From a virus, in the IMG/VR virus record IMGVR_UViG_3300036905_000054: a stretch of 41,680 bases of DNA; one strand, written 5' to 3'. Within the stretch, counting starts at the first letter, position 1. The number at the start of each line of letters is the position of its first letter. The position numbers were made by a program, and so were the translations under genes. This document shows positions 2,537-2,820 of this stretch, piece after piece. The notes under the pieces are model-generated. The model was not told the origin of the DNA and made no database searches. It was given only the letters and a program-made list of their open reading frames with translations.

Positions 2537-2625
2537 TGGCTGGGACGGCATGATTTGAACATGCAGTGACCAAATTGGTCGCTGGGGTCAGAACCCAGTG
2601 GGGTTGCCGGTTTTCCTACGTCCCA
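2537..2625 (-). tRNA. type-II (long variable arm) tRNA-like gene, anticodon apparently CUG
   Basis: RC: TGGGACG..CTGGG TTCTGAC CCCAG CGACCAATTTGGTCACT GCATG TTCAAAT CATGC CGTCCCA G CCA. Acceptor and T-arm are good and the variable arm forms a hairpin, but the D-arm is unclear. The anticodon call is tentative. Confidence 0.45.
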
Positions 2626-2733
2626 ATAAAAATTTTTAGCGCTGCTACTCCCGGCTTCAACCCCGAAGAGTGTTTACCGATGAACTAGCTAAGGGAGTTG
2701 AAGACCCACCTGTTCTACCGGAGCGCTAAAATT

Positions 2734-2820
2734 TGGCTGTGGAGGAGGGTCTCGAACCCCCAGAGTCTTACGACACTGCATTAACAGTGCAGCCCGCTGC
2801 CAATTACGGTTTACTCCACA
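2734..2820 (-). tRNA. type-II (Ser-like scaffold) tRNA with GUU (Asn) anticodon
   Basis: RC: TGTGGAG TA AA CCG TAATTGGCAG CGG G CTGCA CTGTTAA TGCAG TGTCGTAAGACTCT GGGGG TTCGAGA CCCTC CTCCACA G CCA. The D-stem is 3 bp and the 14-nt variable arm carries a GTAA hairpin. Confidence 0.5.

Follow-up and report, generated by a model that had tools for sequence, protein, structure and literature searches.

Two long-armed tRNA genes

The stretch of DNA analysed here, referred to as the window, comprises the 41,680 nt of IMG/VR virus record IMGVR_UViG_3300036905_000054 and looks like a piece of a very large phage genome. Two tRNA genes of the window, a tRNA-Asn(GUU) and a tRNA-Gln(CUG), were found to carry long variable arms (Table 1). 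Each belongs to a family of homologues and has an acceptor end which matches its anticodon. Both are probably correctly charged phage elongator tRNAs, which would read AAC and AAU as Asn and CAG as Gln.

The long tRNA-Asn showed the sequence UGUGGAG-UAAA-CCGU-AAUUGGCA-GCGG-G-CUGCA-CUGUUAA-UGCAG in its 5' half and U-GUC-GUAA-GAC-UCU-GGGGG-UUCGAGA-CCCUC-CUCCACA-G-CCA in its 3' half. Its acceptor stem is a perfect 7-bp helix with U1-A72 as first pair and G73 as discriminator, CCA is encoded, and the acceptor and T stems are in the 7/5 arrangement. The D arm (CCGU-AAUUGGCA-GCGG) follows an unusual 4-nt connector, UAAA, because of which Infernal shifts the acceptor register. The long tRNA-Gln also has a perfect 7-bp acceptor stem (U1-A72, G2-C71, G3-C70), G73, G10, an encoded CCA and the 7/5 arrangement, and its D stem (GGAA/CCCC) contains two A.C mismatches which are conserved in all four members of its family. 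With variable regions of 14 nt (Asn) and 17 nt (Gln), both tRNAs fall in class II, defined by a variable region of at least 10 nt with its own stem-loop, and neither has the variable loop of 4-5 nt of a class I body.

An earlier sequence-only reading of the window had described both tRNAs as long-armed with Asn (GUU) and Gln (CUG) anticodons, and ARAGORN and Rfam agreed on both. The 14-nt variable arm of the tRNA-Asn with its GNRA-capped hairpin (3-bp stem, GUAA cap), the clean CUGUUAA loop, which was invariant in 19 homologues, and the presence of a canonical tRNA-Asn(GUU) of 75 nt on the minus strand were also confirmed. The D stem of the tRNA-Asn, reported there as 3 bp, was found to have 4 bp (CCGU/GCGG) after the 4-nt connector. 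That reading had further allowed that a covariance model might select other anticodon arms; the model selected the same loops, CUGUUAA and UUCUGAC.

Other folds of the tRNA-Asn were considered and rejected. An 8/4 or 9/3 fold of the allo-tRNA type was discarded since position 8 cannot pair with the end of the T stem (U8 faces C), and a 6-bp D stem of the tRNA-Sec type was ruled out by A.G and A.C mismatches. A register with a 6-nt anticodon loop (CACUG/CAGUG) was rejected since pairs 29-33/41-45 all covary and CUGUUAA is constant. Inspection by eye gave no consistent covariation in support of a pairing of the additional connector nucleotides with the 3' tail of the arm.

The two long-armed tRNAs are separated by a 108-nt spacer. 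With a folding energy of -34.1 kcal/mol (z = -2.7), it forms a long closed hairpin, and none of 200 shuffles folded equally well. The spacer had no match in Rfam.

Table 1. Positions of the long-armed tRNAs and of other features discussed in the text.
Feature	Position	Strand	Evidence or remark
Class-II-bodied tRNA-Asn(GUU), 87 nt	2734..2820	(-)	ARAGORN; Rfam tRNA 31.8 bits; 20 distinct homologues
GUU anticodon in loop CUGUUAA	2783..2785	(-)	ARAGORN and Infernal agree; loop invariant in 19/19 aligned homologues
Variable arm U-GUC-GUAA-GAC-UCU of tRNA-Asn, 14 nt, 3-bp stem, GUAA cap	2762..2775	(-)	3/3 pairs with compensatory changes
Long-variable-arm tRNA-Gln(CUG), 89 nt	2537..2625	(-)	ARAGORN; Rfam tRNA 42.4 bits; homologues L142, L163, L161
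CUG anticodon in loop UUCUGAC	2589..2591	(-)	ARAGORN and Rfam/Infernal alignment
Variable arm C-GACCA-AUU-UGGUC-ACU of tRNA-Gln, 17 nt	2565..2581	(-)	Hairpin kept in homologues, sequence and length differ
Canonical class-I tRNA-Asn(GUU), 75 nt, U1-A72, G73	2441..2515	(-)	ARAGORN; Rfam tRNA 65.7 bits
Spacer between the long-armed tRNAs, 108 nt	2626-2733	(-)	Long closed hairpin
tRNA-like RNA of permuted order	2333-2435	(-)	Counterpart at L163 2421-2530
Long imperfect hairpin, ~80 nt	2237-2325	(-)	Present in the window and L144
tRNA-like gene, 6-nt anticodon loop AUUAAC, no CCA	2166-2236	(-)	Rfam tRNA 44.5 bits; counterpart at L163 2537-2604
Four consecutive tRNA-Arg genes (UCG, ACG, GCG, CCG)	3058-3542	(-)	
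Three different tRNA-Lys(CUU) genes	2010-2085, 37589-37664, 38115-38192	(-)	
tRNA-Ser(CGA)	14052-14140	(-)	Atypical D arm
tRNA with CAU anticodon loop (UUCAUAA)	49-122	(-)	Rfam 37.2 bits; not called by ARAGORN
Thg1-like protein gene (tRNA-His guanylyltransferase family)	39135-39980	(-)	Pfam Thg1; among tRNA clusters
RlaP-type RNA-repair nucleotidyltransferase gene	5953-6786	(-)	Among tRNA clusters
PTH2 peptidyl-tRNA hydrolase gene	13352-13627	(-)	Among tRNA clusters
826-aa open reading frame	7063-9543	(-)	Major-vault-protein shoulder and repeat domains, E = 3.6e-26

The long-armed tRNA-Asn family

Homologues of the long tRNA-Asn were obtained by pattern scans of IMG/VR (loci L001-L005), JGI metagenomes (L140-L157) and two metagenome-assembled genomes (L158, L159). 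A scan of IMG/VR with the D-arm motif CCGUAAUUGGYAGCGG alone returned mostly tRNA-Tyr(GUA). Pooling of this motif-only scan with the anticodon-targeted scans, which enrich for Asn, gave 52 distinct well-folded tRNAs on one scaffold, namely 24 Tyr(GUA), 20 Asn(GUU), 6 Ser, one His and one with a UGG anticodon. The discriminator tracked the anticodon without exception, with A73 in all 24 GUA members and G73 in all 20 GUU members. The first pair was G1-C72 in 18 of the GUA members; among the GUU members it was U1-A72 in 19, A1-U72 in one and G1-C72 in none. All six members with Ser anticodons had G73 and G1-C72. The His(GUG) tRNA of L149, which lies on a one-pair variant of the scaffold, had C73, the bacterial His discriminator. 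One scaffold member (L153) had a variable loop of 5 nt, yet it carried GUU and G73, which indicates that the arm is not needed for the acceptor/anticodon signature.

The window tRNA-Asn shared 83% identity with the phage tRNA-Tyr of L017, against 52-60% with the window's own four tRNA-Ser genes and 56% with the canonical tRNA-Asn located 200 nt away. Its only matches among GenBank phages were in Streptomyces phages (77.5-79.7% identity), and these were tRNA-Tyr where annotated. The variable arm (UGUC-GUAA-GACUCU) differed from that of the tRNA-Tyr of L017 and L024 (UGUC-UAAC-GACUCU) in the loop alone, and its layout of 1 nt, 3 bp and 3 nt was that of 23 of the 24 Tyr members of the scaffold. 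The 3' tail of the variable arm had 3 nt in both window tRNAs and 1-2 nt in the Ser members, whose variable arms measured 14-16 nt, with one of 24 nt. Judged from these comparisons, the body of the tRNA-Asn is a phage tRNA-Tyr body and not the Ser-like scaffold of the sequence-only reading. The alignment offered too few variable non-stem positions to tell a single origin of the long tRNA-Asn genes from tRNA-Tyr from several.

When 19 distinct long tRNA-Asn sequences were aligned, 98% of the cells were paired and 18 of 24 pairs had changed on both sides, including 7/7 acceptor, 5/5 anticodon-stem and 3/3 variable-arm pairs. Compensatory changes were found in four helices and the D stem was invariant. 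None of 500 shuffles reached the covariation score, and slid registers also scored far below it. CUGUUAA, G18G19 and the T loop were invariant or almost so. This pattern indicates that the family is under selection as tRNA.

Among the fetched loci, the long form was the only Asn tRNA in L140, L143, L145-L148, L150 (30 tRNAs), L157 and L158 (20 tRNAs). A long and a short tRNA-Asn occurred together, as in the window, in L001, L003/L004, L005, L151 and L163, and the long tRNA-Asn of L149 was paired with an Asn tRNA of 79 nt.

The long-armed tRNA-Gln family and other long-armed tRNAs

The long tRNA-Gln had no blastn match among GenBank phages, and the exact pattern of its anticodon arm and T arm had no match in IMG/VR. 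The 15-mer of its D arm was found at 50 loci in IMG/VR, all of them chance matches in coding DNA with no tRNA, and the family was recovered only with a relaxed pattern (GGAAAAYYGGCAACCCCA). The odd D arm GGAA-AAYYGGCAA-CCCC of this Gln-specific body recurred in L142, L163 and L161, and the anticodons of the family were Gln anticodons only (CUG in the window, L142 and L163; UUG in L161). U1-A72, G2-C71, G3-C70, G73, G10 and CCA were present in all four members and G1-C72 in none. The variable arm always consisted of C, a hairpin of 3-5 bp and ACU or AUU, the hairpins of the homologues being GUC-UGCG-GAC, GUGC-UUAA-GCAC and GUC-GAAA-GAC. Over the four sequences, all 84 cells were paired (100%) and 9 of 21 pairs had changed on both sides.

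A further locus, L144, showed 0 mismatches and 11 indels against the window over 1.55 kb, and had a 1-nt deletion in the Gln anticodon stem. It was used neither as independent support nor as a sign of decay, being the same phage as the window with sequencing errors of the indel type, and the deletion in the anticodon stem is most likely one of these errors.

A second phage tRNA-Gln scaffold (D arm GUGUAAUUGGCAACAC) was very common, with about 45 distinct class-I Gln genes, and rare long-armed variants of it were found in L003, L150 and L255. An arm has therefore been gained in tRNA-Gln more than once.

Long arms were also present in other tRNAs of related arrays. These included Arg ACG of 87-89 nt (L003/L004/L155, L142, L149), His GUG of 85-89 nt (L149, L150, L008), three tRNAs of L161 (Pro UGG of 89 nt, Glu UUC of 84 nt and Thr GGU of 81 nt) and a tRNA with a CAU anticodon of 86 nt (L199). 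The arm GUC-GAAA-GAC occurred both in L161, in its Pro and Gln tRNAs, and in the tRNA-Asn of L163 and of L148, and may be a module which these tRNAs share or have exchanged. Stop-codon anticodons were also found in related arrays (CUA in L150 3063-3136 and L161 1661-1734; UCA in L154 4439-4513), and these tRNAs may be suppressors.

Identity elements and predicted charging

Bacterial Asn identity consists of the anticodon and G73 and can be transplanted into tRNA-Lys, and U1-A72 is a determinant of the GatCAB amidotransferase for both Asn and Gln (PMC9976931). The long tRNA-Asn of the window has the complete bacterial tRNA-Asn set (GUU, G73, U1-A72). Gln identity depends on the anticodon, G73, the 10-25 pair and the acceptor stem, where pairs 1-72 and 3-70 are among the elements (PMC9976931), and the long tRNA-Gln carries the set of the E. 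coli type (U35, G36, U1-A72, G2-C71, G3-C70, G73, G10). An amber tRNA-Ser turns Gln-accepting once pairs 1-72 and 3-70 are altered (PMC9976931), which means that a class-II body is acceptable to GlnRS.

A73 and U35 are required for Tyr identity, in bacteria together with G1-C72 (PMC9976931); the combination of GUA and A73 is absent from the tRNA-Asn, which has GUU and G73. Ser identity is set by the variable arm and the tertiary shape, aided by G73, and most tRNA-Ser of bacteria have the conserved pairs G1-C72 and G2-C71 (PMC9976931). Both window tRNAs have a long arm and G73. The combination of G1-C72/G2-C71 with a Ser anticodon was not found in them, as they have U1-A72 with GUU and CUG, and kinship with the phage's own tRNA-Ser genes was lacking, at 52-60% identity.

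The tRNA-Asn would derive from a phage class-II scaffold mostly serving tRNA-Tyr(GUA), its identity having shifted from Tyr to Asn through three changes, namely A to U at position 36, A73 to G73 and the replacement of pair 1-72 by U-A. Bacterial AsnRS reads hardly anything besides the anticodon and G73, and a foreign body should therefore make no difference. The tRNA-Gln would be a tRNA-Gln which gained a variable-arm hairpin and retained the acceptor, D-stem and anticodon determinants for GlnRS and GatCAB. Charging of the two tRNAs would proceed by AsnRS and GlnRS, or by non-discriminating (ND) ND-AspRS and ND-GluRS followed by the GatCAB route.

The phage DNA ligase gene reads normally in the standard code. 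The conserved Asn residues of its motifs MLSxxN, RN and LxN are encoded by AAC or AAU and the Gln of its FQVGRTG motif by CAG, and these codons indicate that the code is standard at the gene level.

Alternative explanations

Several observations weigh against correct charging of the two tRNAs. The D stem of the tRNA-Gln has just two Watson-Crick pairs, and its family has just four independent members. With a canonical tRNA-Asn(GUU) already there, the window would seem to have no need of the long copy for decoding, and the loci in which the long form is the only Asn tRNA are fetched loci rather than whole genomes. AsnRS belongs to the class-II enzymes and probably approaches the tRNA from the side of the variable loop, like AspRS, where the arm might hinder it. 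In addition, both tRNAs carry the long arm and G73, which are the main determinants of SerRS (PMC9976931, PMC5389517), and allo-tRNAs with G73 insert Ser (PMC5389517). The phage tRNA-Ser of the same scaffold have arms of no more than 14-16 nt, apart from one with 24 nt, and certain long Asn tRNAs show a Ser-like arm layout, the arms of L149, L150, L151 and L156, with a 5-bp stem (3 bp in L151) and a 2-nt 3' tail, being closer to the Ser members. The long arm with G73 and these arm lengths and layouts would favour the scaffold-directed charging raised by the sequence-only reading, in which SerRS acts through the long arm and G73 and Ser is inserted at Asn and CAG-Gln codons, either deliberately or as a tolerated error. 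Such mischarging is nevertheless unlikely, as the acceptor ends match the anticodons, the body of the tRNA-Asn is of the Tyr type, G1-C72 is absent in 20/20 Asn and 4/4 Gln members, with U1-A72 in its place, and the 3-nt 3' tail of the window tRNAs is typical of the Tyr members. Furthermore, several large arrays among the fetched loci showed no Asn tRNA other than the long form, and the short-loop member of the scaffold keeps the same acceptor end. Low-level serylation of both tRNAs could still occur, and full reassignment is ruled out by the conserved Asn and Gln codons of the ligase gene.

A role outside translation also appears improbable. In it, the two RNAs would decode little and would instead divert the tRNA-targeting defence nucleases of the host, as decoys or sponges, or have a regulatory function. 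Such a role would agree with the adjoining canonical tRNA with the same anticodon, with the odd RNAs of the cluster at 2166-2236 and 2333-2435, and with the Thg1-like, RlaP and PTH2 proteins for tRNA repair and maturation encoded in the window. Neutralisation of retron, PARIS and PrrC defences by phage tRNAs is known, and in the case of Retron-Eco7 the inhibition involves the variable loop of a phage tRNA-Tyr (PMC12673091, PMC11555353, PMC10264068). However, CUGUUAA is invariant, and the acceptor identity elements, CCA, the T loop and G18G19 are intact, as in a charged, ribosome-competent tRNA; in several fetched arrays no Asn tRNA other than the long form was found, and such strict agreement of G73 with the anticodon would be needless in a decoy. 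Descent of the two genes into pseudogenes, as decaying duplicates of class-II tRNAs with drifted anticodons, would account for the Rfam score of the tRNA-Asn, barely over the gathering score of the tRNA model (29 bits), for the weak Gln D stem with its two A.C mismatches and for the 1-nt deletion of L144. This explanation, which the sequence-only reading had offered together with misfolding, is very improbable, since both families are conserved over many unrelated contigs with their helices kept by compensatory substitutions, the A.C mismatches are conserved in 4/4 Gln members and the indels of L144 point to sequencing error. A possible but doubtful reading sees in the class-II body an adaptive disguise. 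For tRNAs whose synthetases recognise hardly more than the anticodon and N73 (Asn and Gln, plus His, Arg and Pro in relatives), giant phages would have turned to long-armed bodies. Host defences which recognise a class-I body with the anticodon, such as anticodon nucleases and other systems that deplete tRNAs, would be unable to bind or cleave these forms, with charging and decoding staying correct. In a variant of this reading, G73 and the arm would provide a second, Ser identity and conditional Asn/Gln-to-Ser mistranslation. It may be speculated that the arm is kept because the long copies, beside the canonical copy, evade host tRNA nucleases or engage a phage factor. The setting, with three tRNA-Lys(CUU), four Arg anticodons, the Thg1-like, RlaP and PTH2 genes and the aberrant RNAs, would fit an anti-defence use.

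Comparison with known tRNAs

Textbooks and reviews recognise class-II tRNAs in bacteria and their phages for Leu, Ser, Tyr and Sec only, with exceptions such as allo-tRNAs. Full-text literature searches found no report of a class-II tRNA-Asn or tRNA-Gln in phages, and a review of non-canonical tRNAs did not mention phages. For the two tRNAs as correctly charged tRNA-Asn and tRNA-Gln, the closest description is an isotype switch, in which a class-II Tyr body would have been recruited for Asn, together with the gain of an arm in tRNA-Gln.

The phage class-II tRNA-Tyr(GUA), such as the tRNA-Tyr of Streptomyces phages BillNye, Circinus and Alone3, has the D arm CCGUAAUUGGYAGCGG in common with the long tRNA-Asn, as well as the 4-nt connector, the arm of 1 nt, a 3-bp hairpin and 3 nt, the 7/5 stems and up to 83% identity. 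It differs in having GUA, A73 and mostly G1-C72, whereas the window tRNA-Asn has GUU, G73 and U1-A72, and its T loop is UUCAAGU, whereas that of the Asn members is mostly UUCGAGU. Canonical class-I tRNA-Asn and tRNA-Gln agree with the long forms in anticodon, G73 and U1-A72, and for Gln also in G2-C71, G3-C70 and G10 (PMC9976931). They have variable regions of 4-5 nt in contrast to the hairpins of 14 and 17 nt found here, and the body of the long tRNA-Asn is unrelated to that of canonical tRNA-Asn (56% identity to its neighbour).

Allo-tRNAs have 8/4 or 9/3 stems, a D arm like that of tRNA-Sec, very diverse anticodons and presumed charging with Ser or Ala (Mukai et al. 2017; PMC5389517). The window tRNAs, in contrast, have 7/5 stems, the anticodons of a single amino acid in each family and an acceptor end which fits the anticodon. 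The nev-tRNAs of nematodes are class-II tRNAs with anticodons other than those of Leu, Ser or Tyr and are leucylated in vitro against their anticodon (PMC3333845, PMC4300185). They keep the Leu identity of their scaffold, whereas in the window tRNA-Asn the discriminator and the first pair are switched to those of the amino acid of the anticodon. In tRNA gene recruitment, or remoulding, the accepted amino acid shifts via a change of anticodon. The tRNA-Asn would resemble such cases in that the body of one isotype was reused after GUA changed to GUU along with a change of identity elements. It differs from them in crossing the boundary between class II and class I and in persisting as a diversified family in phage arrays.

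Other features of the window

All long open reading frames of the window were on the minus strand, and their products included an NAD-dependent DNA ligase, two HNH endonucleases and MazG and HD enzymes. A total of 19 tRNA genes were called by ARAGORN and one more by Rfam (49-122). The tRNA cluster at 1700-4300 had no megablast match among GenBank phages. The closest relatives of the window were metagenomic contigs of 100-463 kb, among them L163, a complete contig of 463 kb with synteny to the window, and the complete contig of 455 kb which holds L004.

The anticodons of the four consecutive tRNA-Arg genes comprise all CGN-reading anticodons, and the presence of three different tRNA-Lys(CUU) genes is an unusual redundancy for a single anticodon. 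The tRNA-Ser(CGA) is unlike the remaining three tRNA-Ser genes in the window; its D arm (CCAG-UGGGCA-UGGU) is atypical, its first pair is A1-U72 and its variable region measures 19 nt. The domains found in the 826-aa open reading frame are unexpected in a phage.

The tRNA-like RNA of permuted order is conserved in L163. A closing stem of 8 bp encloses, in this order, a hairpin resembling a T arm, a stem resembling an acceptor stem with a UUCG hairpin as its cap, and a canonical D arm. In L163 the closing stem differs from that of the window by four compensatory changes. The topology is reminiscent of the bacterial Y RNA-like (YrlA) tRNA mimics, and the Rfam YrlA model gave no hit at E <= 10. 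The tRNA-like gene at 2166-2236 has three non-Watson-Crick positions at the top of its acceptor stem (two mismatches and a G.U wobble), and its counterpart at the same place in L163 also has a short loop, which is different. Between this gene and the tRNA mimic lies the long imperfect hairpin, which the window shares with L144 (the same phage) and which is missing from L163.

Significance

The class-II tRNA-Asn make up a diversified family, with 20 distinct sequences drawn from IMG/VR, from JGI metagenomes and from two metagenome-assembled genomes, and smaller long-armed sets for Gln, Arg, His, Pro, Glu and Thr were found in related giant-phage arrays. On a single scaffold, the anticodon (GUA/GUU/GUG) and the discriminator (A/G/C) shift together, which forms a natural identity-switch series showing the elements which synthetases must read. 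These tRNAs are ready substrates for studying how AsnRS, GlnRS, SerRS, TyrRS, EF-Tu and tRNA-targeting nucleases cope with an extra arm. For the annotation of phage genomes, they also serve as a warning that a mismatch between isotype and anticodon in a phage tRNA need not imply recoding.

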